From NCBI GenBank assembly GCA_964228815.1, contig CAXRAL010000015.1, forward strand, positions 1-63,148: a stretch of 63,148 bases of DNA, read 5' to 3'. This document shows positions 6,711 to 43,839 of the stretch, one piece after another. The notes beneath the pieces were generated by a model, which was given only the letters and a program-made list of their open reading frames with translations, was not told the DNA's origin and made no database searches. Source of the stretch: Candidatus Poseidoniaceae archaeon (GTDB lineage: Archaea > Thermoplasmatota > Poseidoniia > Poseidoniales > Poseidoniaceae). Each line of letters opens with the position of its first letter. The stretch's first letter is position 1. Both the position numbers and the translations under genes were made by a program.

Positions 6711-8261
6711 TCAGGACAAGCGGCCTTTCCGCTCCTCTTGCTGCTCGCCCACATCGCGCAACAAGCGTTCTCTCAAGGCCTCGTGTAGCCACATGCCTTC
6801 CTCAAGCTCCAGCAACAATCCGTGCTTCAGCAAATTTTCTGGCGGCGTACCGTTCCAACCGACCCCACTCGCCAGCGTTTCCCAAGCGACGGGTGCTTCT
6901 GCGACAGCCAGCGTTGCCAGCAGTTCCTTTTCCTTCTCGGGCAATCGAAGGAGGATCTCCTCGTCGAGGAACCGGAGCCAATCTTTGTGCGTGGGCTGGC
7001 CGTACAATTCCAGTAATTCCATCGCAAGCGGGTGACCGCCTGTGGCGGCATGAACATCTTCCGCAGGCGGTGTTTCTCCACCTTCAAGGTTCGAGAGCCA
7101 CGCTTCGGTCGCCTCGAGGCTGAGGCCTTTGAGCGGGAGTTCGCGAACGGTGTCACGGATGTGGACATCCCGGCGGTCGTAGACGCTGAGTTCCGTGCGA
7201 GACACGAGCAGGACACGGAGCGGCCCTTTCTGGGCCAGTTGCAACAAAGAACCGAGCAGATGTCGGGCTTTCTCACTGATGTGGTGCACGTCGTCCAGCA
7301 CGATGAGCCAGTACGGCGGTGGGCCGCCAACGCTGTCTTTGAAACGCTCACGGATGGTGTTGGCGTCGGTCATGTAGGCCATCAGTCGCCGGCGCCAGGC
7401 ATCCACATCCATGTCGGCGCCGGGCGTCAGCGGTAAGGTCTCAATGATGCGATACGGGTCGTGCGTTTCGTCAATCCCAAATCGATGGAGCAGGCTGGTG
7501 GCCAGCCCCAAGGCTCGGTCCCACGGCTGGCAGGTGTACCAGCACACGGAGAGGTGCGGGTCGGTTTCCATGTGTTGCTGGAGCCAGTGCGCGATGAGCG
7601 TTGATTTTCCAATCCCGGCAATGCCGTGAACCACCATGCAGGGGTGTCGGTCAGCAAACCAAGCGTGCAGGGTGTCCAATTCAGCGTCTCGGCCATACAC
7701 CGGACGCGTGGGCGGCGGCTGGTTCGCATAGGTCGCATGAACGCCCACCAGCGGCGTCAACCGACCGGGTTCGGGCAGGTTGTCGTCGTTTGATTTCCGA
7801 ATGCTTCCGAAGCGGATATCACCGTAGGTCAGCACCCCCTCGTGTTGGGCGTGGAGAAGAATCTGCAGAAGCGTCAGATCGGTTTCGAGAAGTCCCGGGG
7901 CTTCTGAGGCCTTGACCTCCAACAATTCCCCGTCCATGTTTCGAACCAGCACTTTCGTGTCGTCCAAGGCCACCCGCCGCTGACGTGCACGAAGACGACC
8001 TTCTTCGGTCAATTGCCAGGTCTTTTGACGTCGTTCATCGCCTTGCACGGCGCGTGTGTGTTCCTCCACGAGGAGATCCTTGAGCAGGTCGCGCATCGTG
8101 CGACTCACGTTGGGTGGGTGTTGGGCGCACGCCTCGGCGATACCGGGGCGGGTGAGGGCGGGCGGAACCATGTAGCGGTCTGCCCATTCGTCGTTGGCCA
8201 GCAGGTGAAGCAACACCCTGTCTTTGGCAGCGACGTTGACCTTAGGGATGTCGCCCGCCAT
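6711..8261 (-). CDS. wHTH-fused STAND/AAA_16-type P-loop NTPase, putative signal-sensing transcription regulator
   Basis: N-terminal wHTH-like region (LTRPGIAEACAQHPPNVSRTMRDLLKDLLVEEH). Walker A VVHGIAGIGKSTL and Walker B YWLIVLDDVHHI. Helical C-terminal arm ending in a MalT-like GMWLHEALRERLL. Confidence 0.65.
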   Translation of the reverse strand: MAGDIPKVNVAAKDRVLLHLLANDEWADRYMVPPALTRPGIAEACAQHPPNVSRTMRDLLKDLLVEEHTRAVQGDERRQKTWQLTEEGRLRARQRRVALDDTKVLVRNMDGELLEVKASEAPGLLETDLTLLQILLHAQHEGVLTYGDIRFGSIRKSNDDNLPEPGRLTPLVGVHATYANQPPPTRPVYGRDAELDTLHAWFADRHPCMVVHGIAGIGKSTLIAHWLQQHMETDPHLSVCWYTCQPWDRALGLATSLLHRFGIDETHDPYRIIETLPLTPGADMDVDAWRRRLMAYMTDANTIRERFKDSVGGPPPYWLIVLDDVHHISEKARHLLGSLLQLAQKGPLRVLLVSRTELSVYDRRDVHIRDTVRELPLKGLSLEATEAWLSNLEGGETPPAEDVHAATGGHPLAMELLELYGQPTHKDWLRFLDEEILLRLPEKEKELLATLAVAEAPVAWETLASGVGWNGTPPENLLKHGLLLELEEGMWLHEALRERLLRDVGEQQEERKGRLS

Positions 8262-8387: not shown

Positions 8388-11300
8388 ATGACTTCTCGAG
8401 CCAACCTCGGCCGACCTCCCCGAGCCACCGCCTTGGTCCTGTGTTGGTTGATGCTCCTTGCCGTTCTCCCTCTGGCTTCAGGCGCTGATGCTGATGGCGA
8501 CGGCTACGATGACAGCGTGGACGATTGCCCGTACGCTTACGGAACCTCCACCGTTGACCTCACCGGTTGCCCGGATGCTGATGGAGACGGGACCTCCAAC
8601 CTCAACGATGGCTGGTCATCCAACAACCCCAACTTCGCTCAAGATTTCTATGTCAGTGGGACCAGCGTTTACTCCGTTGACCACAACGCCGACGGTAGCC
8701 TGGTCGCCGCCGCCATCGGCGACCGTATTCGCGTGTTCTACACCGCCACGTTCACCATCGCCGTGACCAGTCCCGATTTGGTGAACGGCAACGGCGCCTA
8801 CGTAACCGGCCTTGACTGGAGTCCAGACGACCAGTACATCGCAGCCTCCCTCTCCGACGACACCGCCGTGGTCTTGTGGGCCAGCAACCTCACGGTCATC
8901 CATGACGACATCACGCACAGCGGCTCATCCCGCACCTTCTCTGATGTGGGCTTCTTGGCCAACAGCACGAGTTTCGCCGTGGTGGATGAGGACTCGGGCG
9001 GTTGGGGTGGTAGCTGCAGCGGCTGCGCCATCATGCTCGTCAGTGTCGAGACCGGTCAAATTTGGCGTGAAGTCAAGCCCGGTGGCAACAACGGTGAGTA
9101 TTCCTCGGTGGCGTTCTCTCCCGACGGTTCCCGTATGGCCGTGGGCGGCGAAGGCACGGCCTACCTCGTTGAGACGTCCGGTTGGACCACCGTGCGCGCC
9201 ATGAACCCTGGTGCGGGCAGCGACGTCCACAGCATCGACATCTCGCCGGACGGCAACACCATCGCCATGTGCACCGGCTACGACAACGGCGCCAGCCGAT
9301 TGCGCGTGTTCAACACCTCGTCGGGGGCCTCCATTCTCAATCAGCAAGCGACCAGCTCGTGCTACGGTGTTGACATTTCGCCGGACGGCACGCAGGTGGC
9401 GTACACCATCGGCTACTACAGCACCAACGGCGGGTCTGTCTTGGTGTACGACATCGACACGTCCTTGTTGGTCGATACCATCCAACTCGCCCGAGGCAGC
9501 AGCACCTGTAACCAAAGCGGTAACGGCAACCCTTGCGGCAACGTCAACAGCGCCTCGTGGCACCCCGATGGTGTTCATATCACGGCTGGTGTGAGCCGAA
9601 ACTACAACGGACTGTACTTCCTGTTTGCCGACCTTGATAGCGACAACGACGGTTACAATTCCACGGACCAGGGCGACGGTGTCGTGGATGCCTTCCCCGA
9701 GGACGGAACGCAGTGGAACGACACGGATGGCGACGGCTACGGCGACAACCCCGCCCCAGCCAACGAACCCGACGAGTGCATCACCACCCCTGGGACCTCA
9801 ACACAGGACCGCTTCGGTTGCCCCGACACCGACGGTGACGGTTGGTCCGATGCGGGCGATTGGGCTCCGCTCGACCCTCTGCAGTGGGCCGACGCCGATG
9901 AGGACGGGTACGGGGATAACTATCGCTTTGACCTCAACGAATACCAACTCCACGTGAACCAGTCCGGTGATGCCTTCCCCAACGACCCGACTCAATGGAA
10001 CGACACCGACGGGGACGGCTACGGTGACAACTACGAGAACGCCTCGTGGGATTCCTACCGCCCCGCAGAATGGCCAGGCGTCTTGCTTCCGGCCGCCAAC
10101 ACGCCCGACGCCTTCCCGCTCGACCGCACGCAACACATGGATTCCGATGGCGATTGGATCGGCGACAACCCGAACAGCGACCGCGCCGACGCCTGTCCAA
10201 ACCTCTACGGTGATTCACAGTACGACCGCCTTGGTTGCCCCGACACCGACGGTGACGGTTACTCCGACCCGACGGCAGGCTGGCCGGCCACCACCGACTG
10301 CTACGGCGCCGATGCCTTCCCCGCCGACCCAACGCAATGGTGCGATGAAGACAACGACGGCTTCGGCAGCAACCCCGATGGCAACAATCCTGATGACTGT
10401 CCCAACAACGCCGGCTCGTCCACCATTGACCGCGTGGGTTGCGTGGACCGAGACGGCGACGGCTATTCCAACGCCGGCGACCCCTTCCCTGACGACCCCA
10501 CGCAGTGGTCCGACCGAGACGGTGACAACCGAGGCGACAACGCCTCGGGTAACAACCCCGACGCCTTCCCTGACGACACCAGTCAGTGGAAGGACAGCGA
10601 CGGCGATGGCTACGGCGACAACCCTGGTGGCAACAACGGGGATGCCTTCCCTTCCGACTCGACGCAGTGGAGCGATGAAGACGGCGACGGCTATGGCGAC
10701 AACACCGACGGAAACGATGGCGATGTGTGTCCGCTGGACTACGGTGAGTCGCAGGCTGAACTCAGCCGAGGGTGCCCCGATTCCGATCTCGATGGCGTGA
10801 CCGATCCGCTGGACGCCTTCCCCGACGACCCCTTCCAGTGGGCTGACACCGACGGTGACGGTTACGGTGACAACACCAACGTTCCCAGCGGTGACGATTG
10901 CATTGACGTGTTCGGGAAATCCTTCGAAGAAGGCCGCTTGGGTTGCCCCGACGCTGACCTTGACGGCTACGCCGATGTCGACGATGTGTTCCCCACCGAC
11001 CAAGAGCAGTGGGCTGACTTTGACGGCGACGGCTACGGTGACAACTACTACTGGGAGAACAGCACGGTGGCTGACGAAGAAAACCCAGGCATGTTCCTGA
11101 CGTTGCGAGAACAACGTGGCGACGCCTTCCCGCAAATCGCCAGCCAGTGGTCGGACATGGACGGCGACGGTTGGGGCGACAACCAGAGCAGTTCCAACCG
11201 CGTGGACAACTTCCCTCTTCGTGCCAGCCAGTGGCTGGACTTCGACGGGGACGGCTACGGTGACAACGCCACCGGCTACCAGTTCGATGCGTGCTACAAG

Positions 11301-11834
11301 GTGCCAGGAACGTCCACCACCGGAGACTACGAGGAATACTTCGGCTGTCCTGATTCAGACGGTGACGGCACAGCCGACGAATACGATCCCTGCCCGTGGG
11401 ATCCTGAGGTGTCTCAGGGCTCCCGTACCACGGCCGTGTGCGGCATCACCGAGGACCCAAGCCTTGCATCCAACGACGATGGAGAAGCCGGGTCCCTCCT
11501 GAGTGGGAACGGTGGAACGCTCCAAATCATGGGTGGGATCATCATCTTCCTGCTCGCCCTGATCGTCGTCGCTCAAGTGGCCAAGACCGCCGGTCGAAGG
11601 AAAGCCGTTTCGAACAAGCGCGAGGACCAACTCGCTCAAGCCTCCGTCGCAGAGGAAGAGGAACGCCGCCAAGCCTGGATTCAACATTACATCGCTGAAG
11701 GAAACTATGCAGAAGCACGTGCGCTGGGTTGGGAGGGAACCGAAGGGTTGCCCGAATGGAAGCAATACGAAATGCAGCAGCAGGCGGCTCAAGAAGCAGC
11801 CATTCCTACCATGATGGACCTCGAAAACCTCTGA
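8388..11834 (+). CDS. Giant acidic surface protein: signal peptide, WD40-like beta-propeller, array of Asp-rich Ca-binding (TSP3-like) repeats, C-terminal TM anchor and cytoplasmic tail
   Basis: Signal peptide ALVLCWLMLLAVLPLASGADA. Propeller-like repeats (FSPDGSRMAVGG, DISPDGNTIAMC, DISPDGTQVAYT, WHPDGVHITAG). About 12 copies of FPxDxTQWxDxDGDGYGDN. TM helix IMGGIIIFLLALIVVAQVA followed by a charged tail. Confidence 0.8.
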   Translation: MTSRANLGRPPRATALVLCWLMLLAVLPLASGADADGDGYDDSVDDCPYAYGTSTVDLTGCPDADGDGTSNLNDGWSSNNPNFAQDFYVSGTSVYSVDHNADGSLVAAAIGDRIRVFYTATFTIAVTSPDLVNGNGAYVTGLDWSPDDQYIAASLSDDTAVVLWASNLTVIHDDITHSGSSRTFSDVGFLANSTSFAVVDEDSGGWGGSCSGCAIMLVSVETGQIWREVKPGGNNGEYSSVAFSPDGSRMAVGGEGTAYLVETSGWTTVRAMNPGAGSDVHSIDISPDGNTIAMCTGYDNGASRLRVFNTSSGASILNQQATSSCYGVDISPDGTQVAYTIGYYSTNGGSVLVYDIDTSLLVDTIQLARGSSTCNQSGNGNPCGNVNSASWHPDGVHITAGVSRNYNGLYFLFADLDSDNDGYNSTDQGDGVVDAFPEDGTQWNDTDGDGYGDNPAPANEPDECITTPGTSTQDRFGCPDTDGDGWSDAGDWAPLDPLQWADADEDGYGDNYRFDLNEYQLHVNQSGDAFPNDPTQWNDTDGDGYGDNYENASWDSYRPAEWPGVLLPAANTPDAFPLDRTQHMDSDGDWIGDNPNSDRADACPNLYGDSQYDRLGCPDTDGDGYSDPTAGWPATTDCYGADAFPADPTQWCDEDNDGFGSNPDGNNPDDCPNNAGSSTIDRVGCVDRDGDGYSNAGDPFPDDPTQWSDRDGDNRGDNASGNNPDAFPDDTSQWKDSDGDGYGDNPGGNNGDAFPSDSTQWSDEDGDGYGDNTDGNDGDVCPLDYGESQAELSRGCPDSDLDGVTDPLDAFPDDPFQWADTDGDGYGDNTNVPSGDDCIDVFGKSFEEGRLGCPDADLDGYADVDDVFPTDQEQWADFDGDGYGDNYYWENSTVADEENPGMFLTLREQRGDAFPQIASQWSDMDGDGWGDNQSSSNRVDNFPLRASQWLDFDGDGYGDNATGYQFDACYKVPGTSTTGDYEEYFGCPDSDGDGTADEYDPCPWDPEVSQGSRTTAVCGITEDPSLASNDDGEAGSLLSGNGGTLQIMGGIIIFLLALIVVAQVAKTAGRRKAVSNKREDQLAQASVAEEEERRQAWIQHYIAEGNYAEARALGWEGTEGLPEWKQYEMQQQAAQEAAIPTMMDLENL
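9630..11405 (+). repeat. In-frame coding tandem repeat array (Asp/Gly-rich Ca-binding-type repeats, period about 30-45 aa)
   Basis: Recurrent GAC/GGC-rich units encoding DAFPxDxTQWxDxDGDGYGDN, alternating with CPDTDGDGYSD-type units. The composition generates long spurious ORFs in other frames and on the opposite strand. Confidence 0.75.
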
Positions 11835-11892
11835 CCCATCACACATGATTTGCACCGCTGACCTTTCAAAGGGGAACGGGCCATGTTTTCAC

Positions 11893-14445
11893 ATGGGCGA
11901 GAAGCCGACAGGCCGATTGTTGATGTTGGCGGGGCTCTTGGTGACCTCGTTGTTCATCGGCATGGTGTCGGCAGACGAAGGCGACGTGGTCTTGACGGCC
12001 AGTGTCCTCAACGCGCCTGACCAGCCCTGGTTTGAACCCGGCCAACCCCTTGTTCTTGAGCCCCGATTGGTCAACAACGGACCTGAAGTCTCGCTGCTGA
12101 TGAACCCTGCCTGTCCGGTGGTGTTGAACGTGTACAACGCCTCCAACGTCATGCTGGTCAACGGTTCCTCAGACTGTCCCCAACGCGAGCAAGGGCTTGA
12201 TCTGTTTGCTGGCGAAGAACTCGCTCTCGAGGTCGTAACATGGTCCATGAAAGATGAAACGGGGGCGTGGCTTGAGAGCGGCTCCTACACCGTGGAACTT
12301 CTTCATTCAGCTGGAGCCTCGTTCATCACCGAAGCAACCATCCAGACGCCGGTCTCCTTCCCTGAGGACCTGACCTTTGCCGTTCAAACCACCCAGCGAA
12401 CGACGGACGGACAGGCCGTTCATCTGGTGAGTTTGTACAACCCCACCGCTCAGAGCGTTGACCTTGACGAGACAGCGACCTGCCGACTGGAAATTGCGGT
12501 GGATGCCCAGCACCGTCTCGGGGCACCCTGCACCGGTGGCGTGAGCACGCTGATGCCCGGCGAGGTGATGATGGTGGAGCAGGTTTCAGCCAGCCCATCG
12601 GCTGTGGTCACCATCTCAACGCCGGGTGATTTCTTCGTGTTCAACAGCGGAGAAGGTGAGCCGACCGGCGCGACACCGTCCGAACTTCAAATGGAGTTGG
12701 CGTTGAGCGGCAACGAATTGCCCGCCTTCAGCCCAGGCGAAGTGCTGGTCAGCGAAGTGCTGTTGCGCTCCTCCTCCACGGCCTCCGTTCAAGTGGAGTT
12801 CACCGACGCCTGCAAAGCCGAGATGTGGGTGGTGGACGATCTTGGAACCCTCGTCTACGACAGCCGAACGGGGAAGACCTGCACGGCGATTGATCTGGAA
12901 GTCACGGTCGAACCAGAGACTCCTGAACGCTTGACGTTGCCGCAGTGGAATTTCTACGATGCTGCCGGGTGCATGGTTGAACCCGGTTCCTACACGGTTG
13001 TAGCTGAAGTGCCCGAGCACGGGTTGATCACCAGCAAGACCATTGAATTCTTCTCCGTGGAAGCCAATCCGTGCGCTGCCTCCGACGCTGCTCAACTTGA
13101 GGCGTCGCTGGCTTGGCAGGACGACCAAACACTCCGTCTCAACACCGAGGCCTCGACCGACCAAGCCACCTACCTCCGCATGGCCCAACCGTGCACGTTT
13201 GAAGTGGCCTTCCTCAACGAAGGCGGTGATGTTGTTCACGTCTTCCAGACCCTCTGCGACGCGTACGACGGTCGCAAAGTCCTCTTGCCCGAGGCCTCTC
13301 AGCCGCTGGAGTTTGATGCGATTGACATCAGCATGATTCAAGACGGCACCCCGCTTCTTCCCGATGGCTACTACACCCTGAGCCTCACGATGCTGTCCAC
13401 TTCACCGTCCACGATCTCCCTTCCGTTTGCCTGGCCGGCCGACTACGGTGATGAAGACGTTGAACCGACGATCGTTGAAACGGTTGAGCCGTTTGAATTG
13501 ACGGGCACATGGACCGGCCTTCTCACCGACCAAGGCACGTGTTTCGTCATGGACGCCGACGGTGAAACCTTCCTGCTGTCCAACGCACGCACCCTGCCAA
13601 ACTGGCAGCCCAGCGCTCAAAACCAAGGCGTTTACGTCGTGGTCGAGACCTCATCCTCTCCTGCTTGCCGCGACTACCTTGCACCGTCGGTTGAAGTGGT
13701 TGAGGTTCGCATGGAGCAACCCATCGCCAGCGAAGAAGCCACCCCGGTCGTGGTCCTGGACGAACCCACCACCACGGTCGTGGAATCCAACGCTGTCGTC
13801 ACTGCGGTGAGCGTGGTGGTCACCGCATCGGTTCTCTCGATGTTCGTCATGGTCGCCGCCACCAACGAAGGCCTCCGTCTGCCGGCCACCGCTGCTGGCC
13901 TGTGGTTCCTCGGGCTCATCGGCAAGACGCACGAAACCACGGACGGTCGCTATCAGCGCGGCCGACTGATGGGCTACCTGACAGCCAACCCCGGATGTCA
14001 CTTCAGAGCCCTCATGAGTGCTCTTGACATGAGCAACGGGCAAATTACGCACCACCTTCGCATCCTCGAGGCCGAGGAGCACGTGTGGCGAAAGAACGAC
14101 GGTCGCCTTGTCCGCTTCTATCCCCTGACCAACAAACTTCACCCCAACACCAGCGAGGAAGACCTCCCTGTCCCACCGCTCTCTCCCGACCCGAATAGCC
14201 TTCAGGGCAAGATCCTCAATCTGCTCGACCAAGATGGCGACATGGGCCAATTCCCTACGCAGGCCGAGCTAGCCAAGCGCTTGGAAAAGAGTCAGCAACT
14301 GATTTCCCACCACCTGCGGACGCTCCAGAAATACGGGCTGGTCGAGCGACGTAAGATGGGTGTCAAGAATCGATACAAACTCACCCGAGAAGCGGTGTTC
14401 CTGTTGGAGACCAGCGATGATTTCGCTCACGACGACCTCCTCTGA
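11893..14445 (+). CDS. Membrane-tethered protein with four-repeat Cys-paired beta-sandwich ectodomain and two C-terminal ArsR/MarR-like winged-helix domains
   Basis: Start trimmed to ATG 11893 (MGEKPTGRLLMLAGLLVTSLFIGMVSA is a signal or anchor). About 600 aa of repeats ending in GSYTVELL, GSYTVVAEV and DGYYTLSLTM. Hydrophobic VVTAVSVVVTASVLSMFVMVAA. wHTH1 is FRALMSALDMSNGQITHHLRILEAEEHVWRK and wHTH2 is QAELAKRLEKSQQLISHHLRTLQKYGLVERR. Confidence 0.7.
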   Translation: MGEKPTGRLLMLAGLLVTSLFIGMVSADEGDVVLTASVLNAPDQPWFEPGQPLVLEPRLVNNGPEVSLLMNPACPVVLNVYNASNVMLVNGSSDCPQREQGLDLFAGEELALEVVTWSMKDETGAWLESGSYTVELLHSAGASFITEATIQTPVSFPEDLTFAVQTTQRTTDGQAVHLVSLYNPTAQSVDLDETATCRLEIAVDAQHRLGAPCTGGVSTLMPGEVMMVEQVSASPSAVVTISTPGDFFVFNSGEGEPTGATPSELQMELALSGNELPAFSPGEVLVSEVLLRSSSTASVQVEFTDACKAEMWVVDDLGTLVYDSRTGKTCTAIDLEVTVEPETPERLTLPQWNFYDAAGCMVEPGSYTVVAEVPEHGLITSKTIEFFSVEANPCAASDAAQLEASLAWQDDQTLRLNTEASTDQATYLRMAQPCTFEVAFLNEGGDVVHVFQTLCDAYDGRKVLLPEASQPLEFDAIDISMIQDGTPLLPDGYYTLSLTMLSTSPSTISLPFAWPADYGDEDVEPTIVETVEPFELTGTWTGLLTDQGTCFVMDADGETFLLSNARTLPNWQPSAQNQGVYVVVETSSSPACRDYLAPSVEVVEVRMEQPIASEEATPVVVLDEPTTTVVESNAVVTAVSVVVTASVLSMFVMVAATNEGLRLPATAAGLWFLGLIGKTHETTDGRYQRGRLMGYLTANPGCHFRALMSALDMSNGQITHHLRILEAEEHVWRKNDGRLVRFYPLTNKLHPNTSEEDLPVPPLSPDPNSLQGKILNLLDQDGDMGQFPTQAELAKRLEKSQQLISHHLRTLQKYGLVERRKMGVKNRYKLTREAVFLLETSDDFAHDDLL

Positions 14446-17357: not shown

Positions 17358-20060
17358 TCACGCCTCTTCTTCCATCGCAGGACGGGGCGGCGGAGCCGTG
17401 ATGGGTTCGGGCTGGGTCTTTGGCAGCGGCGGACCTGGTCGCTGTGCGTTGGAGTAGACTGCATAGACGATGACGGCACCAGCAAGCAGGAAAATGATGG
17501 TCGATGCACTGACCCCATCGTCGTCGCTCTCGCCCGCAGGGTTGACAACGGCCGCTTCGCATCCTCGCTCGTCAACCACGGCGTCAACCGGCGAATCACC
17601 ACAGAAGTCGTAAGCGTTGACAACGCCGTCACTGTCATCGTCGAGCTGGTATTCACTGCATCCGTTCGAAGAAGCCGTTTGCTCGGGGTCGGTGTTCGGG
17701 CAGCGGTCCAGCGGGTCAAGCACCCCGTCTTGGTCGTCATCGTCGTCCTCAACAGCATCGATGCACCCGTCGCCGTCGTTGTCCTGACCGGGCTGAGCAG
17801 GGCCGATCAGGCCGCGTGGGCAGCGGTCCATCGGATCCTTGATGCCGTCTTGGTCGTCGTCGTTGTCTTCGAGGTCGTCATGGCAACCGTCGCCGTCGTT
17901 GTCGTAGAGAGAGGCATTGTCACCCCAGTTCTTTTCCCCCATCGGGCAGGCGTCGTTGACGTCCAACACCGAATCGTCGTCATCGTCTTCATCCGAGGTT
18001 TCGTCGAGACAACCGTCGCTGTCATAATCGTTCCAAGAGAAGGAAACCCAAGACTGGATGTCATTGGGGCAGTTGTCATCGGGAATGGAGATGCCGTCGC
18101 CGTCTTTGTCGGCGTCGCAGGCATCACCGATACCGTCGTTGTCGAGGTCGGCTTGGGTAGGGTTGGCGACTGCAGGGCAATTATCAGCTTGGTCAACAAA
18201 GCCGTCTTCGTCGTTGTCCTCATCCGAGCATCCGTCCGACTCAATGTCGCTTTCTTCGGTGGAGATCCACCCAACGGGTCCCTTGGGGCACAAGTCGTAT
18301 TCGTCGAAAATACCATCTTCGTCATCGTCCAAATCCTCCGTGAGGTCTCGGCAACCGTCACTGTCATGGTCGGACATGGTGTTGGCTGCCCACCCGACAT
18401 CACCAGTTGGGCAATCATCGTCCACGTCCAGCACGCCGTCTCCATCGACGTCATCGTCGCAAGCATCGCCGAAGGCGTCACCGTCGAGGTTGGCTTGGTC
18501 GTTGTTGGCGAGGCCGGGGCAGTTGTCAACTCCGTCCAGCACCCCGTCGAGGTCCAGATCGGTCTCATACAGCCATACGCCCATGTCGTAATGATCACGC
18601 TGCTCGAACGAATGAGCGCCGTAGGCACCGTCGTTGTTGGCGATGAAGGAGATGACCGGTGAACCGGTTGCACTCATGGCGAGCGTGTCGGGAAGGTCAT
18701 CGCCTTGCCCTCCTGCTGAAACGGCCCAATCCCAGGCGCTGTTGGCTTGACGCCGTGCGAGGAAGAGGTCGTGGTGGTTCCCGTCGTTCATGCCGTCGAG
18801 GTCGGTGAGCGTGTATTCGCCCAGCACGAGTGTCCCTGTGGTTTTACCCAAGATGAGCGAATCGCCTTGCTCGGTGAGATGAATCGCCACGGCGTGGTCC
18901 GCTGCCCCGCCACCGAAGGCGGTGGCGTGCATCCATTCACCTTGTGGAGAAAGATGGGCTTCGTAGAAATCGACCCACACCGATGGCGCGAGTTCAATTT
19001 CACCAAACGTCATGTTCTGCAGGAAATCACCCACCACCGCCACACCACCGTCATGGCGGCCATCGCAGTCGGCAGCGGTCGAATCGCCCGCACCTCCGGC
19101 GCCTGTGGCCCAAAGCCAACCACCAGAGTTGTATTTGGCAACAGCGACGTGTGAGGTTCCTTCGCTGGTGAGTTCGTTTTCTCCGAAACTCACGAGTTCA
19201 AGGAACGAGGTCGCAAAGTAGGTTTCGCCGTTGTCGTCTGAGCACAGGGACCCCGTGTTTTCGAGGTTCTGGCTGGAGAACACCGTGTGCATGTGTCGAT
19301 GCTCCCCCATGCTGTCCAGCACGATGATGGCCACGGAGTCCTCGGAGAGGCTTCCAGGTGCCAACTCGCCACCGGAGGTCAGCGAATCTCGATGAAGAAG
19401 CGCGAGGTGAACTTCGTCGTTCGGGCCGACCATCATGTCAATGACTGAGAGCTGGTAGGGATTGGAAAAACTCGTTGCCCACATCCACTCGCCCATGGAC
19501 GTCATGCCAGCCACGAAGACGGCGTTTTCGTGTTCGTCAGCTGTTTTGTTGATGGGTGCGAGTTCGCCGAGGGTCATGTTGCAAGCATCGCCTTTGGTCA
19601 TGTCACAGAACGTGCCTGCGACGATGATGGTCCCGTCACTCGTACGGTCCATGGCGTCAATGCCGTCGAGCCCACTGCTCGTACCGGCGACGGTTTGGGT
19701 CCAGGTGCCGTTTTCATCGATCCATGCAAGGAAAAAATCAATTCCAAAACTGGAGTCATCGCTTGAGAAACCAACCACATCGTCGTGGAATTCTACGTTT
19801 TGTTCGAACATACCACCCACGAGCATGCTGCCGTTGGGCAAGGGAACCATTCCTCGTACGCGCTCGTAACTTGCTCCACCTGCGCTGGCCAACCAACCGC
19901 TGGCGTTTTCGGCAGAGCTGGGGCTGGTACTCACCTGAGTCAAGGTTGACTTGCCATCGTGTCCACCGTTGATGGACAACGGGGTGAGCAACATCATGCT
20001 CACGACCAAGAACGGCATGATGCGACTGATTCTCACACGGCAACCAAGGTGCCTCTGCAT
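17358..20060 (-). CDS. Giant acidic surface protein: signal peptide, SBBP-like beta-propeller, canonical thrombospondin type-3 repeats, C-terminal TM anchor
   Basis: Start trimmed to ATG 20060 (MQRHLGCRVRISRIMPFLVVSMMLLTPLS). Propeller-like repeats (DFFLAWIDENGTW..., VAVAKYNSGGWLWAT..., DLFLARRQANSAWDWA). TSP3 units DNCPGLANNDQANLDGDAFGDACDDDVDGDG and DNCPAVANPTQADLDNDGIGDACDADKDGDG. TM helix STIIFLLAGAVIVYAVY. Confidence 0.8.
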   Translation of the reverse strand: MQRHLGCRVRISRIMPFLVVSMMLLTPLSINGGHDGKSTLTQVSTSPSSAENASGWLASAGGASYERVRGMVPLPNGSMLVGGMFEQNVEFHDDVVGFSSDDSSFGIDFFLAWIDENGTWTQTVAGTSSGLDGIDAMDRTSDGTIIVAGTFCDMTKGDACNMTLGELAPINKTADEHENAVFVAGMTSMGEWMWATSFSNPYQLSVIDMMVGPNDEVHLALLHRDSLTSGGELAPGSLSEDSVAIIVLDSMGEHRHMHTVFSSQNLENTGSLCSDDNGETYFATSFLELVSFGENELTSEGTSHVAVAKYNSGGWLWATGAGGAGDSTAADCDGRHDGGVAVVGDFLQNMTFGEIELAPSVWVDFYEAHLSPQGEWMHATAFGGGAADHAVAIHLTEQGDSLILGKTTGTLVLGEYTLTDLDGMNDGNHHDLFLARRQANSAWDWAVSAGGQGDDLPDTLAMSATGSPVISFIANNDGAYGAHSFEQRDHYDMGVWLYETDLDLDGVLDGVDNCPGLANNDQANLDGDAFGDACDDDVDGDGVLDVDDDCPTGDVGWAANTMSDHDSDGCRDLTEDLDDDEDGIFDEYDLCPKGPVGWISTEESDIESDGCSDEDNDEDGFVDQADNCPAVANPTQADLDNDGIGDACDADKDGDGISIPDDNCPNDIQSWVSFSWNDYDSDGCLDETSDEDDDDDSVLDVNDACPMGEKNWGDNASLYDNDGDGCHDDLEDNDDDQDGIKDPMDRCPRGLIGPAQPGQDNDGDGCIDAVEDDDDDQDGVLDPLDRCPNTDPEQTASSNGCSEYQLDDDSDGVVNAYDFCGDSPVDAVVDERGCEAAVVNPAGESDDDGVSASTIIFLLAGAVIVYAVYSNAQRPGPPLPKTQPEPITAPPPRPAMEEEA
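17583..18563 (-). repeat. Coding repeat array: TSP3 repeats plus about five CP-x-GW-x-D-x-D(S/G)DGC-x-D...DDD-x-DG-x-D-x-x-D-x-CP units
   Basis: Periodic Asp/Cys pattern over residues 524-850 of the 924-aa ORF-track translation. The antisense frame is open over 17679-18662 as a by-product. Confidence 0.7.
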
Positions 20061-20132
20061 AAGAACCCCTCGTGTTTCCGTGAGTGTGCGATTGGGGGAG
20101 CCTTCATTGAGTGTCGTCAGAAAGAGAACCAC

Positions 20133-26800: not shown

Positions 26801-29800
26801 ATGAACAGAATCCGAGCGACCATGAGCCAACCGGACGAGGGCGTGAATTTGGGGGCAAAAAATCCCCTCATTGGCGTTGACGTTGAGCGTTTGGAGCGTG
26901 AAATGGAGGCCTACCATCAATGGCTCGACGAACGAGCGGATGATGCGTATCGCATCGCTGAGCAAGCTCGTCAGCAGGGATTTGACCACAAGGACAGGGT
27001 GGAAATCCCTCGAGCCTCCGACCTAGCCGGGCGAACGGAAAAACTCCTCATCGAACACCTTGAGGGTTACGAGGTCGCCGACGACATCCGCAACCTGCTG
27101 GAAGAACACGACCGTGAAACCACGTCGATCATCATTGCACAGTCGGTGGCCCGCGGGTTCCGAGATTCGGGATATGATTTGGAGAAATCCATCGATGTTG
27201 GCCTTCGTGTCGGTCTTGCTGTGTTGACCGAGGCCGTTCTTGTGGCCCCGTTGGAAGGCATCAGTGAAGTCCGTCTGCTCAACAACATCGATGGTTCCCA
27301 GTTCGTTTCTGTTCATTTCGCAGGCCCGATTCGCGCCGCAGGTGGAACCGCCCAAGCGCTGGCCGTTCTCATCGCCGACATGATTCGTCGGGAACTCAAC
27401 ATCGGACACTATCAGCCGACGGACCCCGAAGTTGAGCGTGTGAAGGAAGAATTCGGTCTCTATCGTGGGAATCTCCAGTATCGACCATCACCTCAGGAAA
27501 TTGACGAAATCGTCCGAGCATGCCCGGTGATGATCAACGGTGAATCCACCGAACGTATCGAGTGCGCTGGCTATGGCAACGTCCGAAACATCGACGAGGC
27601 CCGTATCCGAGGCGGCGTCCTCCTTGTCATCGGTGAAGGCATGTGCCTGAAAGCACCCAAGATTCAGAAACACACCGAACGATTGAGTGTACCTGGATGG
27701 GACTTTATTGCGAAGTTCGCCGCACGCGGAAAAGAATCGGAGGACGCTGGCAAAGCTACGTTCAAAAGTCAGCAGATTCAACCGATTACCAAGTTCATGA
27801 AGGACATCATCGCCGGACGACCGGTGTTTGGTGGACCGCTCCAACCGGGCGGTTTCCGACTCCGCTACGGGCGTGCACGCCCTTCGGGTTTGGCAGCTGC
27901 TTCCACCAACACCGCCTCCATGCTGGCGCTAGATGATTTCATCACCATCGGGACGCAGATGAAAATCGAACGGCCGGGGAAGGCCTGCGCCATCACGCCC
28001 TGCGACGAGGCCGAGGGTCCTTGGGTGGTGTTGGAGGACGGGCGATTTTTGCGCGTTGACGAGCCTTCGGCCTACGCTGTTCTTCGCCACCGTGTGAAGC
28101 AGGTATGGGACAACGGCGAGTTGGTGATCGGCTATGGGGAATTCATGGAGAACAACAAGCGCCTTGTTCCCGCAGGCTACACGATGGACTGGTGGGCCAG
28201 CGATATGTTGGACAACCTCGAGAGCGAGGACGACATCCATGCGTTCCTCGAGGTCTTGGGCGAGAAGAGGTCGGCTTGGCCGCCGGGTGCTCCGGGCCTA
28301 CCTGCCTCGGAAGCGGAAGACGGACACGACCAGTTTTGGGTCCGATGTGACTGGCACGAGCGTCTCCGTCAATGCGAGTTGACGTGGAGCCAAGCGCATC
28401 GCTTCGCCCGCCGATATGCCACCTCCCTGCCTCCGCCCCACAATCCTTGGTTCAAGGACCTCCCGCTCGAATGGCTTCCTGCCCTCTTGGACCAGCTTGA
28501 AACCTCGGTCATCGAAGCCCAACCGGCCGATAGCGAAGCGCCGGAGGGGGCTCGCCCCTTGCCCAGCGAGCGCCGTTTGCGGCTGCCGGGAGGGGCTCGG
28601 AATTGGACGCCGAAAATGATGGACGACCTCGAACCCGAATCGCTTCCCTCACTCGACAGTGTTCAACTCCCGGGATTGACGGTCGAACTTGAAGCACCGA
28701 TCATGGTCAACGGACTTCCCGAAGGATGGGCCCTTCACCAACACGGGCTGGTCAAAGGCGCCATGATGCTCCTGGGTCTTCCTCATCATCACGAGGGTGA
28801 TGATGTCGTGGTCACGGCGGGTTGGGAAGCACTCCTTGAGGGTCTTGGCTTCTCCTTCGATGGGGAGAAGCCCCTACGAACGAAGGACGCCCGACACGTT
28901 GCGACCGAGCGAATTCACGCTCTCCGTCAGGCAAAAGAGGTGTTGAACGAGGAACGGGCTCGAAAAGGTGCATTGGAAAAGGAGCGTGCGACGATTCGAA
29001 TCGCTGCTGAAACCGGGGCTCGTCAACGTGGGCTTGGAATTGCAGAAACCGACCAGGTCGGTCGAGATGCGGCGGCCTCGGTCCCCGATAACGGGCCCCG
29101 CGACCCTGCTGCCTACCTCGCCGCTCAGCGCCTCGAAGACGAGCACGCCGTCGAGGGCATCATGGTGCTCGTCCGGTCGCTGTCGGACCTTCGTTGGGAA
29201 CACAGCGCTCCAGTCCGTGTCGGTTGCAGAATGGGACGGCCAGAGAAGGCGGCCCCCCGGGTCATGAACCCGATGACGCACTCGTTGTTCCCCATCGAAT
29301 TGAACGGTGGAAATCAACGCTTGCTCAACAACGCCATCGACAAACGAACCATTCGAGTCCAACTCGGTCGACGAACCTGCTCAACCTGCGGCCAAGAATC
29401 GCCTTACCTCCGCTGCCACCATCGGGCACTGGATGCCCACGGCGAGGGCAAAGCCGGTGAAACCTGCGGCGGCCCAACCACCGCTAACCCCACGAAATCC
29501 AACGCTTACCGGCGGGGAGAGGTCCAATCCGTGCGGATGGACGAGATGGTGGAAGATGCCCGTATCCGTCTCGGGATTGACCGCCTGCCTGCGCAGGTCA
29601 AATGCATGAAGAAACTGAACAGTCGAGACCAAACACCGGAAGCCATCGAGAAAGGTATCCTCCGTGCCAAGCACGAGTTGCCGGTGTTCAGGGACGGTAC
29701 GGTTCGTTACGACATGAGCGATGTACCAACCACGCACTTTACGCCTCGTGAAATTGGCGTCCCGTGGAAAACCCTGCACGGTCTCGGCTACACGCACGAT

Positions 29801-30919
29801 TACCGCGGTGCGCCGCTGGAAGACGACGAACAAATGCTCGAGCTCTTCCCACAAGATTTCATCGTCGCCAAAGGAGCGGCCGATTTCCTGCTCCGCACGG
29901 CCAAGTACATCGATGAATTGCTGGTCCGCTTCTACAACATGGAACCCTACTACAACGCCGACAAAGCCGATGACCTCGTCGGCCACCTCATCTGCGCCCT
30001 TGCACCCCACACCAGTGGAGGGGTGCTGTCCCGAATCATCGGTTGGGCGGATTGTTCAGGTGGATACGCCCATCCACTCTTCCATGCTGCCAAGCGGCGC
30101 AACTGTGACGGCGATGAAGACGCCATCATGCTGTTGATGGACGGTTTGCTCAACTTCAGCCGGGACATTTTGCCCGCCAACCGTGGCGGTCAGATGGACG
30201 CGCCGCTCGTTCTCACCACTCGCTTGAATCCCACAGAGGTTGACAAAGAGGCCCTTAACGTCGATTCCGCATGGTTCTACGAGCGTGATTTCTACGAAGC
30301 AACCCTCAGCCAGCCGCACCCGAAGGACATTCAGGATCGCATGGATTTCGTCGAACGTCGACTTGGGAGCGTGGCGGCCGTGCGTGGATACGGCTACACG
30401 CACGACTGCCATGCCATTGACCAAGGCCCTGCGCTTTCGGCCTACAAGACCCTCGAGACGATGATTGACAAGATGAACGGGCAACTGGCCCTTGGTCACC
30501 GTTTGCGCGGTGTGAACGTTCGTCAAGTGGCCTCGAGCGTGGTGCGGTCCCACTTCCTTCCGGATCTTCGGGGTAACCTCAACGCCTACGGCCGGCAAAA
30601 AGTTCGCTGCCTCAAATGCGCTCATTCCTACCGGCGCATGCCCATTTCTGGGAGTTGCATTCAGCCGAAAAAGGAGACTGGACGAGGTCTAGCTCGCATG
30701 GGTGTCGCCAAGGCAGAAGGGGGGTTGTGCAATGGAAACCTGGCGCTCACCGTTTCCGAGGGTGCGGTTCGAAAATACATCGAAGTCATGCGTTTCGTCA
30801 TGGACCACTACGGCGTGGATTTGTACACGCGGCAAAACGCTGAATGGTTGGCATCCAGCGCCGATTCGTTGTTCAACAACGACCGCGCCAAGCAACTCTC
30901 GTTGTCTGACTTTTTGTGA
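26801..30919 (+). CDS. polC: DNA polymerase II (PolD) large subunit DP2
   Basis: 1372 aa. N-terminal EIPRASDLAGRTEKLL, RLRYGRARPSGLAA, catalytic KRRNCDGDEDAIMLLMD, GGQMDAPLVLT, and C-terminal Cys clusters (KVRCLKCAHSY...SGSC). No intein-like insertion is evident. The start could instead be a downstream Met. Confidence 0.93.
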   Translation: MNRIRATMSQPDEGVNLGAKNPLIGVDVERLEREMEAYHQWLDERADDAYRIAEQARQQGFDHKDRVEIPRASDLAGRTEKLLIEHLEGYEVADDIRNLLEEHDRETTSIIIAQSVARGFRDSGYDLEKSIDVGLRVGLAVLTEAVLVAPLEGISEVRLLNNIDGSQFVSVHFAGPIRAAGGTAQALAVLIADMIRRELNIGHYQPTDPEVERVKEEFGLYRGNLQYRPSPQEIDEIVRACPVMINGESTERIECAGYGNVRNIDEARIRGGVLLVIGEGMCLKAPKIQKHTERLSVPGWDFIAKFAARGKESEDAGKATFKSQQIQPITKFMKDIIAGRPVFGGPLQPGGFRLRYGRARPSGLAAASTNTASMLALDDFITIGTQMKIERPGKACAITPCDEAEGPWVVLEDGRFLRVDEPSAYAVLRHRVKQVWDNGELVIGYGEFMENNKRLVPAGYTMDWWASDMLDNLESEDDIHAFLEVLGEKRSAWPPGAPGLPASEAEDGHDQFWVRCDWHERLRQCELTWSQAHRFARRYATSLPPPHNPWFKDLPLEWLPALLDQLETSVIEAQPADSEAPEGARPLPSERRLRLPGGARNWTPKMMDDLEPESLPSLDSVQLPGLTVELEAPIMVNGLPEGWALHQHGLVKGAMMLLGLPHHHEGDDVVVTAGWEALLEGLGFSFDGEKPLRTKDARHVATERIHALRQAKEVLNEERARKGALEKERATIRIAAETGARQRGLGIAETDQVGRDAAASVPDNGPRDPAAYLAAQRLEDEHAVEGIMVLVRSLSDLRWEHSAPVRVGCRMGRPEKAAPRVMNPMTHSLFPIELNGGNQRLLNNAIDKRTIRVQLGRRTCSTCGQESPYLRCHHRALDAHGEGKAGETCGGPTTANPTKSNAYRRGEVQSVRMDEMVEDARIRLGIDRLPAQVKCMKKLNSRDQTPEAIEKGILRAKHELPVFRDGTVRYDMSDVPTTHFTPREIGVPWKTLHGLGYTHDYRGAPLEDDEQMLELFPQDFIVAKGAADFLLRTAKYIDELLVRFYNMEPYYNADKADDLVGHLICALAPHTSGGVLSRIIGWADCSGGYAHPLFHAAKRRNCDGDEDAIMLLMDGLLNFSRDILPANRGGQMDAPLVLTTRLNPTEVDKEALNVDSAWFYERDFYEATLSQPHPKDIQDRMDFVERRLGSVAAVRGYGYTHDCHAIDQGPALSAYKTLETMIDKMNGQLALGHRLRGVNVRQVASSVVRSHFLPDLRGNLNAYGRQKVRCLKCAHSYRRMPISGSCIQPKKETGRGLARMGVAKAEGGLCNGNLALTVSEGAVRKYIEVMRFVMDHYGVDLYTRQNAEWLASSADSLFNNDRAKQLSLSDFL

Positions 30920-42179: not shown

Positions 42180-42265
42180 TGGCGCAGTCGGAGAGATTTG
42201 AACTCCCGAGTCACGGGGACACCGGATTTCAAATCCGGCGCAATACCAGGCTATGCGACGACTGC
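42180..42265 (-). tRNA. tRNA-Ser (anticodon UGA), CCA encoded
   Basis: Hand-folded cloverleaf. Acceptor GCAGUCG/CGACUGC, D stem GCAU/UUGC, anticodon stem CCGGA/UCCGG with loop UUUGAAA (anticodon UGA), 14-nt long variable arm (UGUCCCCGUGACUC), T stem GGGAG/CUCUC with loop UUCAAAU, discriminator G, then CCA. 86 nt. Confidence 0.9.
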
Positions 42266-42306: not shown

Positions 42307-43830
42307 CTAACCTTCGTTGGATGGAGAGCGAGCAAAGCGAACCGTCACGACCGCCATGATGAGGGTTCCAAGCGTCATGGTCAGCGGAAGGAAGGGCACC
42401 ACTTCGGTCGTGTTTCCACCGAGTTGTTCTTTCTCCAACAACTCTCGGACATCAGCCGTGAAATCCTCGACGCGCCAGTTGTCGCCGGTCCACGCGACGG
42501 TGGGTTCGAGATCGTCGTTGAGAATGTAGGTGATGGTGGAATGGCCCACGTTGTAATCCTCTGTGGTCTCGGATACGCAACTCAACGGATCGCCCTCCGC
42601 CCAGGTGTAGCCTTCGTCGCACATGCAATGCTTCGAGGCACCGCTGCCCATCTCCCAACCGTATCCGTTACAGACCGTTTCGTCGCTGCTTTCTCCGGCG
42701 GTCGGTGAGGGGATGGTGGAGGCGTTGACGTAGGAGGGGGCCCAAGCGATGTGGTGCGGTTCAGCGAAGTCGTCCATGCCGAGGTTGGACGATTCCCATG
42801 AAGATCCCGTGCCGTTCCATGCGTAGAGGTTCCACCACCAACTGTAATCTTCTGGAGCATCGTGGTCGCCAAGACTGCTCAGGTAGTGGCCGTAGGATGA
42901 ATCCTCAATGCTACGGTTGACCGATGCTGCGGTCAGTGCACCTTCGGTGATGTGATAGGCGTTGAACGTGTCAACCCCCTGTTGCGCTGTGGTTCCGTTG
43001 GGCCAGAGGACGCTCACGCTGGAGGCATGGGTGGCGTTGGGTTCTGGGAGGTCGGAGCGGTTGCTCGTTGACGGCATCCAGGCGAGATGCGAGTGTTCGG
43101 TTGCATCGTAGTCCTCCATGCCGACACTGGAGGCTTCCCAGGTGGCGTTGGTTTCGTTCCAGAGATTGAGTTCCCAATACCACGACCAATCCGAGGGAGA
43201 ATCGACGCCGTTGATGCCGTGAAGCATGCGGCCCCATTCGCTCACCGAGGTGTTGAGGGACCAATTCGCTTCTTCAGCCATCAGGCTGGTGGCGGTCCAT
43301 CCCGACCATGCGAACATGTGTTGCGAGCTGTTGTTGTTGGCGTCCACGACGGTCACCGATGCTTCGCCGGGCTGGTACTCGGCCACGTGCATGTCGATGA
43401 CGTTCTGCTGAACGACGACAGCGAAGGTGGCCCAGACATCTTCGAGTTCCTCCATGCTTCCGGTCAGATGCGGCCAAGTCGCTCCCATGCGGTTGCTGTA
43501 TTCCTTGAGCACCTCGGGCGTATCGTGGTTCGGGTCAACGCTGATGGAAACAAAGGTCACGTCTTCCCGCTCTCCATCGGTCAGTGAGGCCTCAACGGCG
43601 ATGAGCGATTGTGTCAGCATGGGGCAAACATCGGGGCAACGGGTGAAGATGAACGAGACCACCACCACCCCGTTGGTGTCCGTGGTCAAGGCGTACTGCT
43701 CGCCGTTCTGGTCGGTGAGGGGGCCGATGTCAACCGCTTCTCGAGCGAGTTGCTTTCCCTTGTAGGCCGTGGCGGTTCCAGTGAGCACCAGAGTGACGAG
43801 CAGAACAGCAAGGATGCTTTTTAGACGCAT
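42307..43830 (-). CDS. Sco1/SenC copper chaperone fused to a tandem Trp-rich domain, a Cys-rich module and a C-terminal TM anchor
   Basis: Signal peptide ILAVLLVTLVLTGTATA. Thioredoxin-fold Sco core VVVSFIFTRCPDVCPMLT...FVSISVDPNHDTPEVLKEY. Two repeats of about 90 aa, then the TM helix LTMTLGTLIMAVVTV. Last gene of the oxidase operon. Confidence 0.75.
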   Translation of the reverse strand: MRLKSILAVLLVTLVLTGTATAYKGKQLAREAVDIGPLTDQNGEQYALTTDTNGVVVVSFIFTRCPDVCPMLTQSLIAVEASLTDGEREDVTFVSISVDPNHDTPEVLKEYSNRMGATWPHLTGSMEELEDVWATFAVVVQQNVIDMHVAEYQPGEASVTVVDANNNSSQHMFAWSGWTATSLMAEEANWSLNTSVSEWGRMLHGINGVDSPSDWSWYWELNLWNETNATWEASSVGMEDYDATEHSHLAWMPSTSNRSDLPEPNATHASSVSVLWPNGTTAQQGVDTFNAYHITEGALTAASVNRSIEDSSYGHYLSSLGDHDAPEDYSWWWNLYAWNGTGSSWESSNLGMDDFAEPHHIAWAPSYVNASTIPSPTAGESSDETVCNGYGWEMGSGASKHCMCDEGYTWAEGDPLSCVSETTEDYNVGHSTITYILNDDLEPTVAWTGDNWRVEDFTADVRELLEKEQLGGNTTEVVPFLPLTMTLGTLIMAVVTVRFARSPSNEG

Positions 43831-43839
43831 GTGGCTGCC

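Follow-up and report, generated by a model that had tools for sequence, protein, structure and literature searches.

The gene at positions 11893 to 14445 on the forward strand of contig CAXRAL010000015.1, from a Candidatus Poseidoniaceae archaeon (assembly GCA_964228815.1), raises the question of whether its product, an 850-aa protein with a large predicted ectodomain and two predicted DNA-binding domains, is a transcription regulator held in the membrane or a surface protein of another kind. The stretch analysed comprises 63,148 nt of this contig (the window; G+C content about 60%), and all positions are forward-strand positions in the window, with residues numbered in the 850-aa protein. Poseidoniales (Marine Group II, MGII) are among the most abundant archaea of the surface ocean and are uncultured, and their environmental sensing is little understood. 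With moderate confidence, the product is assigned here as a membrane-tethered transcription regulator, that is, a one-component system, with type I topology. As 109 ortholog clusters share the length of the protein and 214 GTDB species genomes encode a relative, the features described below lie far beyond chance.

The initial annotation proposed two ArsR/MarR-like winged helix-turn-helix (wHTH) domains at the C-terminus, and both were recovered by family models scoring above their cut-offs. For the first domain (wHTH1), the Pfam model HTH_HVO_0163_N (PF24266) covered residues 688-745 with an E value of 1e-13 (51.6 bits against a cut-off of 31), and a profile of the tail matched PDB entry 5duk, a 'putative DNA binding protein', with an E value of 1e-9. 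At about residues 770-821, the second domain (wHTH2) was matched by the Pfam models HTH_5, HTH_24, MarR_2, HTH_20 and MarR (E 5e-11 to 2e-6), the first three of which surpassed their cut-offs. The NCBIfam ArsR/SmtB model HTH_metalloreg (NF033788) scored 56.5 bits against a cut-off of 55, and over wHTH2 the tail profile matched ArsR, SmtB, ZitR/AdcR, MepR and NolR. Both domains contain the ArsR-like recognition-helix pattern S-x-x-x-S/T-H-H-L-x-x-L (MSNGQITHHLRIL in wHTH1 and KSQQLISHHLRTL in wHTH2). Cys702, the sole cysteine of the tail, and His703 are both invariant and lie in wHTH1; wHTH2 has no cysteine, and the C-terminal DDFAHDD varies among orthologs (SDDFGQK, NTDFSQD).

An AlphaFold2 model of the full-length protein based on 16 orthologs was poor in the tail because these orthologs are near-invariant there. 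The tail was therefore modelled from a deeper alignment of 69 diverse tails, giving a mean predicted local distance difference test score (pLDDT) of 82.5. This model placed the transmembrane (TM) helix at residues 629-657, a second helix at 659-683, wHTH1 at 686-744 (three helices and a beta-hairpin), an unstructured Pro-rich linker, wHTH2 at 770-830 and a terminal helix at 832-847. Foldseek superposed the wHTH2 model on SmtB, CzrA, ArsR and pI258 CadC with a root-mean-square deviation (rmsd) of 1.1-2.4 A and a target TM-score of 0.6-0.7. Matches to the two domains together were weak (TM-score 0.2-0.3, high rmsd) and comprised TFIIIC tauB, which binds DNA, and ScpB, ESCRT-II and RPC62, which bind protein, leaving room for a protein-binding role of the tail.

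The side of the membrane on which the wHTH pair lies was assessed from hydropathy, spacing and charge. One clear TM helix and a short hydrophobic segment had been noted before, and these correspond to residues 634-656 and to a weaker stretch at residues 662-677. At the N-terminus, where a signal or anchor had been suggested, a hydrophobic stretch at residues 9-27 precedes VSA↓DE; it appears to be a cleavable signal peptide of the Sec type, and 73 of 94 complete family representatives have such an N-terminal hydrophobic stretch. On the Hessa scale, applied independently of position to windows of 19 residues, the sums were -1.1 kcal/mol for the signal peptide, +0.2 for the TM helix and about +7.7 for the best window over residues 662-677, giving two TM-competent segments in all. 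The score of the last stretch reflects its 12-13 apolar residues, confined between R662/P664 and K678. Among 108 family representatives, the median distance from the end of the TM helix to the conserved segment before wHTH1 was about 20 residues, too short for a loop and a second membrane span. Lysine plus arginine in the 15 residues flanking the TM helix amounted to 1.44 after it versus 0.85 before it (higher after it in 64 proteins, lower in 21), and acidic residues showed the opposite bias. Paired cysteines and the conserved sequon were confined to the N-terminal side of the helix. These indirect tests lead us to assign type I topology, with a cytoplasmic wHTH pair, and to regard residues 662-677 as probably forming an interfacial or re-entrant helix.

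Were residues 662-677 to span the membrane instead, the wHTH pair would be extracellular and could not act on chromosomal DNA. The stretch is uniformly hydrophobic with a low hydrophobic moment, and in a few haloarchaeal-looking relatives (P0187, P0192, P0205 and P0214) the equivalent stretch is 16-17 residues long and scores as a second hydrophobic window. Its small apolar core with flanking R662/P664 and K678, its unfavourable Hessa sum and the short family-wide gap nevertheless speak against a second span; the tail, unlike the ectodomain, has no disulfide-type cysteine pairs or conserved sequons, and we know of no precedent for an extracellular ArsR-type DNA-binding pair. This arrangement is considered highly improbable.

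Conservation differed sharply between the two sides of the membrane. In the most divergent full-length orthologs, the ectodomain domains were 32-55% identical to those of the window protein and the stalk 5-19%, whereas the juxtamembrane segment, both wHTH domains and the linker were 81-94% identical, with about 80% of wHTH columns invariant. The C-terminal 168 residues were 100% identical in three contigs (L009-L011) named as Poseidonia sp., 'Thermoplasmatota archaeon' and 'Euryarchaeota archaeon UBA486'. A fast-evolving exterior combined with a near-fixed interior points to strong constraint from an intracellular partner that is itself conserved, such as DNA.

Residues 626-850 were used in an exhaustive HMMER search, which returned 1,975 representative clusters (50% identity) at E <= 1e-3, of which 359 had E <= 1e-10. 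The match formed the C-terminus of proteins of 280-1463 aa, mostly with a hydrophobic stretch at the N-terminus and a single strong TM segment just before the match, and all retrieved relatives with this C-terminal module contained HTH_HVO_0163_N followed by a second ArsR/MarR wHTH. The ectodomains ahead of the module varied, with He_PIG, Big_9, cadherin-like or NosD beta-helix domains or nothing recognisable, a pattern expected of a common output module with variable sensors. Database names for these proteins are generic ('predicted transcriptional regulator', 'ArsR/MarR family transcriptional regulator', 'winged helix-turn-helix transcriptional regulator'), and the organisms named among the members were Poseidoniales, Methanomassiliicoccales, Thermoplasmata and 'Euryarchaeota', all Thermoplasmatota where named; Poseidoniales also encode short paralogs of 288-355 aa. 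The GTDB genomes were scanned with a profile from a narrower tail alignment (A3), as the diverse C-terminal alignment (A2) was too divergent. The best 80 of the 214 species genomes were all Poseidoniaceae, a consequence of using A3, and included the original MG-II assembly CM001443. The gene is a conserved, apparently single-copy core gene of Poseidoniaceae, and a second family member was not found within the window.

Between the TM helix and wHTH1, the juxtamembrane segment is as invariant as the DNA-binding domains. AlphaFold2 assigns a helix to residues 659-683 within it, and the glutamate just after the TM helix is conserved across the family, in which the common order is TM helix, conserved glutamate, basic residue, short hydrophobic stretch (often FLSLIFVPLY), basic residues and wHTH1. 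Signal transmission, a protease site and a membrane-interface helix are its candidate roles. The second of these would fit a model in which the tethered form is inactive and a signal at the ectodomain triggers site-1 cleavage, after which a site-2 protease or rhomboid would cut within the membrane and free a soluble tandem-wHTH fragment of about 20 kDa to regulate transcription, by analogy with SREBP, RsiV-type cascades and CadC processing. The near-invariant N-E-G-L-R-L-P at the cytoplasmic end of the TM helix contains helix-breaking residues, with an acidic residue kept there family-wide; the poorly conserved stalk (residues 613-633) could serve as a site-1 region; and several bacterial transmembrane transcription regulators (TTRs) are controlled by proteolysis (PMC10269533, PMC11484849). 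No site-2 protease or rhomboid gene was present in the window, however, nor was any protease gene linked in related loci, and signal transmission or packing at the membrane interface would explain the conservation of the motif equally well. Proteolytic release is accordingly judged quite unlikely, and a regulator that acts while tethered remains our preferred reading.

About 585 aa long, the predicted ectodomain is strongly acidic, with a net charge of -73 against +1 for the tail. The AlphaFold2 model based on 16 orthologs resolved it into five beta domains, four of them (residues 28-155, 156-258, 259-390 and 391-520; D1-D4) at a pLDDT of about 90 and the fifth (residues 535-612; D5) less confidently. 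In hhalign profile-profile comparisons, D1 was related to D4 (E 4e-7) and to D3 (E 5e-6), and D3 to D4 (E 2.5e-4); D2 was marginal to the other domains (E 0.005-0.08), and no relation of D5 to D1-D4 was detected. Four related cysteine-paired modules had been counted in the initial annotation; kinship held for D1, D3 and D4, which the profile comparisons identify as homologous BsuPI-like domains and to which the GSYTV-type strand is restricted, while D2 is a shorter sandwich and D5 a distinct membrane-proximal domain, making five in all. The resemblance to BsuPI-type sandwiches noted by eye was borne out by a Pfam match of PF12690 to residues 289-374 in D3 (26.3 bits against a gathering score of 22.9). 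D1 and D4 are tied to D3 solely through the profile-profile comparison, and the BsuPI match is uninformative on protease-inhibitor activity. All 12 ectodomain cysteines are invariant in the 16 orthologs, down to 52% identity, and their spacing suggests six disulfide pairs; the N82 sequon is kept in 13 of the 16. D5 is the best conserved of the five domains (mean column identity 0.70).

Foldseek searches of the PDB with the ectodomain returned macroglobulin-domain arrays (C3, C5, alpha-2-macroglobulin, TEP1 and CD109) with E values down to 5e-11 and a TM-score of about 0.12, a likeness that reflects a generic string of immunoglobulin (Ig)-like sandwiches and gives no functional clue. A ligand-binding or enzymatic ectodomain was rejected, as Pfam and NCBIfam identified BsuPI alone and Foldseek the generic macroglobulin arrays alone. 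Such a generic array would also suit a structural surface protein or anchor, in which the tail would tether the Ig-like domains to the nucleoid or to a cytoplasmic partner and would organise the envelope or chromosome instead of regulating particular promoters. This alternative could also draw on the large surface-protein genes near this gene and several paralogs (TSP_3, PKD, beta-propeller, peroxidase), on the protein-binding ScpB, ESCRT-II and RPC62 among the two-domain Foldseek matches, and on the position of a single-copy core gene in a housekeeping neighbourhood beside LeuRS. In sequence, however, the tail matches the ArsR/SmtB and MarR families, which bind DNA, and both of its domains keep the recognition-helix signature; the tandem winged-helix structural matches are those with low TM-scores and high rmsd. 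A structural or anchoring role is therefore regarded as unlikely.

For the regulator that we favour, the upstream region supplied a candidate DNA site. Alignment of 72 distinct Poseidoniaceae upstream regions gave the consensus (T/C)AC(A/G)CA(T/C)-N3-(T)TG(C)ACCGCTG-N2-CTTTCAAG, which occupies 33 nt at 11839-11871. The two boxes of the element share a CAC core and are about 11 nt, or about one helical turn, apart. A position weight matrix scan of 1.55 Mb of related loci found exactly one strong match per locus, always at the promoter of the regulator gene, and none upstream of the STAND, adhesin, LeuRS or TSP_3 genes. The element is the sole close match in the window and occurs nowhere else within 9 kb on either side of the gene; it is absent at two loci from distant Poseidoniales (L006 and L007). 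A shared operator for the neighbouring genes was rejected, the weak matches in the window at 31118 and 53184 falling inside coding regions. An RNA element was likewise rejected, since there was no Rfam match and the small CCTTTCAAAGG palindrome upstream is not conserved. The gene thus has its own strongly conserved promoter, and the boxes, which lie upstream of the TATA box and transcription factor B recognition element, are by position a candidate regulator site. With two CAC boxes facing two tandem wHTH domains, the element may be an operator for autoregulation.

The same alignment bears on the start codon. The TATA-like box begins 28-30 nt before the called ATG in 56 of the 72 loci and 41-53 nt before it in the other 16; in most of these outliers (the 41/42-nt group) an earlier in-frame ATG is visible about 29 nt from the box, and the larger distances are attributed to start-calling. 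The usual archaeal spacing from TATA box to start is about 26 nt. The observed spacing points to a leaderless or near-leaderless mRNA, probably the former, and supports 11893, which reads MGEKPTGRLLML..., as the true start; most orthologs also begin at MGEK, matching this position. The enclosing open reading frame (ORF) spans 11845-14445, and the longer version from the ATG at 11845 was rejected as that ATG is not conserved among orthologs. An upstream peptide, 'MICTADLS', is apparent only, its similarity being explained by conservation of the promoter element at the DNA level.

In the mechanism that we propose, the tandem wHTH pair would bind DNA as an intramolecular pseudo-dimer while anchored at the inner face of the membrane, and the SmtB-like helix at the C-terminus might allow further dimerisation. 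What the ectodomain experiences, whether contact with a ligand or surface, oligomerisation or a change in its stability, would be relayed through the TM and juxtamembrane helices, altering DNA binding and hence target-gene transcription. The gene's own promoter, where the bipartite TACACAT-N3-TTGCACCGCTG lies directly upstream of the TATA-like box, is a plausible first target. Several points weigh against this interpretation. DNA binding, topology and signalling are predictions for every member of the family. The conserved element occurs only at the gene's own promoter, so that no target genes are inferred from it, and any other regulator could bind there. Tandem winged helices also serve protein binding, as in three of the Foldseek matches above, and the ectodomain, in which no ligand-binding domain was identified, would suit a structural or adhesive surface protein as well as it would a sensor.

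If the tail binds DNA, the family would give Thermoplasmatota a major, simple means of signalling across the membrane, with a topology opposite to that of every characterised membrane-bound regulator (ToxR, CadC and ArnR). The soluble tail of 170 residues and the conserved promoter element form a concrete pair that is open to study without culturing; the architecture is unsurprising given an existing survey of archaeal TTRs, and the family is large, ecologically prominent and directly testable. A wider picture is offered tentatively. In Thermoplasmatota, including Poseidoniales, a large class of type I receptor-transcription factors might use fast-evolving extracellular Ig-like arrays to sense particles, surfaces, other cells or viruses, with a near-invariant tethered tandem wHTH reading an operator built as a bipartite direct repeat. 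Through its upstream element, the core ortholog of 850 aa would then control its own gene and could switch cells between free-living and attached states.

Table 1. Predicted features of the regulator gene, its product and two neighbouring genes
Feature	Residues	Positions	Strand	Evidence
Coding sequence, 850 aa + stop; predicted type I membrane protein with C-terminal tandem wHTH	1-850	11893..14445	+	ORF list, Pfam, NCBIfam, orthologs
Conserved upstream element TCACACATGATTTGCACCGCTGA; box 1 TACACAT, box 2 TTGCACCGCTG; candidate regulator site and transcription factor B recognition element region		11839..11861	+	72 upstream regions aligned, high information content
TATA-like box TTTCAAAG, 29 nt upstream of ATG 11893		11864..11871	+	72-locus alignment
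Predicted signal peptide; n-region K4/R8, h-region LLMLAGLLVTSLFIGMV, c-region VSA↓DE	1-27	11893..11973	+	Hydropathy, Hessa-scale sum -1.1
D1, BsuPI-like beta-sandwich; Cys74/Cys95, N-glycosylation sequon N82	28-155	11974..12357	+	AlphaFold2, hhalign
D2, shorter beta-sandwich; Cys197/Cys213	156-258	12358..12666	+	AlphaFold2, hhalign, orthologs
D3, beta-sandwich, Pfam BsuPI; Cys307/Cys330 + Cys360	259-390	12667..13062	+	PF12690, AlphaFold2, hhalign
D4, BsuPI-like beta-sandwich; Cys394 + Cys434/Cys455	391-520	13063..13452	+	AlphaFold2, hhalign, orthologs
D5, small membrane-proximal beta domain; Cys550/Cys592	535-612	13495..13728	+	AlphaFold2, pLDDT 50-65
Stalk, acidic, Thr/Val-rich	613-633	13729..13791	+	Column identity 0.34, zero invariant positions
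Predicted transmembrane helix	634-656	13792..13860	+	Kyte-Doolittle 2.3, Hessa-scale sum +0.2, AlphaFold2 helix 629-657
Juxtamembrane segment TNEGLRLPATAAGLWFLGLIGKTHETTDGRYQRGR; TNEGLRLP, 13-residue hydrophobic ATAAGLWFLGLIG, basic KTHETTDGRYQRGR	657-690	13861..13962	+	76% of columns invariant
wHTH1, HTH_HVO_0163_N type; invariant Cys702	691-748	13963..14136	+	PF24266, PDB 5duk, AlphaFold2
Pro-rich linker ...EDLPVPPLSPDPNSLQ	749-769	14137..14199	+	Conserved in orthologs; low pLDDT, no regular structure
wHTH2, ArsR/SmtB type; recognition helix SQQLISHHLRTL, C-terminal helix 832-847	770-850	14200..14442	+	Pfam, NCBIfam, Foldseek
Upstream neighbour, 1148-aa surface protein with WD40 propeller and Asp-rich Ca-type repeats		8388..11834	+	ORF list, Pfam
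AAA_16 STAND-like ATPase, 516 aa, probable N-terminal wHTH; divergent from the 8388-11834 gene		6711..8261	-	Pfam

The regulator gene had been placed 58 nt downstream of the propeller/Asp-repeat gene on the same strand, and this distance, from the stop codon of the one to the start at 11893 of the other, was found again. The upstream product is itself of predicted type I, with a signal peptide, a WD40-type propeller, many DxDxDGxxD-like repeats, the C-terminal TM helix IMGGIIIFLLALIVVAQVA and, in the cytoplasm, a charged tail of about 100 aa. A wHTH-STAND ATPase gene had been described as divergent from this pair; the STAND assignment stood (AAA_16 E 1e-15, nSTAND6 E 2e-6), whereas the wHTH was weakly detected (HTH_Crp_2 E 0.03).

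The proposal that these three genes form a surface-sensing and adhesion control module gained no specific support. A survey of relatives found the surface-protein and regulator genes adjacent in Poseidoniaceae, but the whole region is equally so: the order glycosyltransferase, Rpe, thioredoxin, STAND (reverse strand), WD40/Asp-repeat, regulator gene, LeuRS is kept down to 52% identity, as is the order downstream of LeuRS (TSP_3 on the reverse strand, TPD, GHMP kinase, RpoD and ribosomal proteins). Because housekeeping genes are equally collinear, the arrangement indicates general collinearity, not a functional module. At the two distant Poseidoniales loci, a gene of the metallo-beta-lactamase fold (Lactamase_B) on the opposite strand separates the surface-protein and regulator genes (L006 9080-9934 and L007 2746-3543), showing that the pair is not an obligatory operon, and the regulator gene has a promoter element of its own. 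Synteny was therefore rejected as specific evidence for an operon or module of the three genes. A loose association of regulator genes with large secreted-protein genes is possible.

Further genes of the window include a 924-aa product at 17358-20132 (reverse strand) with thrombospondin type 3 repeats (TSP_3, E 3e-22) and a C-terminal TM segment, convergent with LeuRS and kept there in all orthologous loci, and a 1322-aa ORF at 59119-63087 (reverse strand) with a Laminin_G_3 (concanavalin A-like lectin) domain, probably a large surface protein. A 152-aa product at 49920-50378 (reverse strand) has an ArsR-like wHTH that weakly matched the family profile over its second half (E 3.5e-5), and is probably an ordinary soluble regulator. 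Housekeeping genes at 26801-30919, 42183-42265 and 42307-47921 encode the DNA polymerase II large subunit DP2, a tRNA (reverse strand), a SCO1/SenC-domain protein and cytochrome oxidase subunit I, a context that fits an aerobic heterotrophic MGII genome.

Two loci with paralogs differ in layout from the window. In a 3-Mb genome of another lineage (L008, 10001-15179), two paralogs of 852 and 865 aa are arranged in tandem, and each carries HTH_HVO_0163_N; a 1263-aa gene without Pfam matches and a 987-aa TSP_3 gene precede them. At a second locus (L091, 1916-12617), a 292-aa paralog (P0395) lies amid two animal-haem-peroxidase-like genes and PKD, Beta_propel and FG-GAP/ASPIC genes, a region that may be a secreted-protein island.

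The regulator had been likened to ToxR. ToxR, CadC and TcpP of Gammaproteobacteria have an N-terminal DNA-binding domain of the OmpR/PhoB type, no signal peptide, type II topology and a C-terminal periplasmic sensor, and in ToxR and CadC the outer domain carries a disulfide. What they share with the window protein is a single TM segment that couples an extracytoplasmic domain directly to a winged-helix DNA-binding domain, and as a functional analogy the comparison stands. The topology is inverted, however: the window protein is of predicted type I and has two C-terminal wHTH domains of the ArsR/MarR type, compared with one N-terminal OmpR-type domain, the sensor domains are unrelated, and no Trans_reg_C (OmpR/PhoB) match was found in the protein at E <= 1 in Pfam.

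The class had also been thought uncharacterised in archaea, which applies to this architecture but not to membrane-bound regulators in general. Demey et al. 2023 surveyed 1,384 archaeal TTRs in 367 of 404 species, with an average of about 4 per genome and 56% single-pass (PMC10269533). By definition the window protein is a TTR, as it combines a predicted DNA-binding domain and a TM region in one chain, and like that majority it is predicted to be single-pass. The survey is a catalogue by domain content and gives no description of this family, its type I topology, tandem wHTH output or juxtamembrane helix (PMC10269533). Experimental work on archaeal examples, biochemistry included, concerns ArnR and ArnR1 of Sulfolobus acidocaldarius, membrane-bound regulators of the archaellum and pili (Bischof et al. 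2019, PMC6396743; PMC10269533). ArnR has its HTH at the N-terminus, its HAMP-like and sensing domains in the cytoplasm and two TM helices at the C-terminus, with essentially no ectodomain (PMC6396743). It resembles the window protein as an archaeal membrane-bound one-component regulator with an HTH domain, but its domain order is the opposite, and neither a HAMP match nor a sequence relationship was detected.

The ArsR/SmtB repressors (SmtB, CzrA, ArsR and pI258 CadC) share with wHTH2 a score above the NF033788 cut-off and a C-terminal helix equivalent to alpha5, and wHTH2 superposes on SmtB, CzrA and ArsR at 1.1-1.6 A. These repressors are soluble homodimeric metal sensors of about 100-120 aa, whereas the window protein is an 850-aa membrane protein with two wHTH domains per chain, and inspection of the alignments revealed no evident conserved metal-site residues. 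wHTH1 is a clear member of the HVO_0163-type proteins (PF24266) by Pfam model score, a likeness known through the family model; the sole mention of HVO_0163 found in the literature was in an acetylome data set, and the literature on COG3398 and HVO_0163 was otherwise uninformative. The family is already present in databases under generic names, and its architecture appears uncharacterised. It is best described as a distinct variant of the known TTR kind, set apart by its predicted type I topology, its tandem wHTH output, a juxtamembrane helix that is conserved and Ig-like ectodomains that vary.

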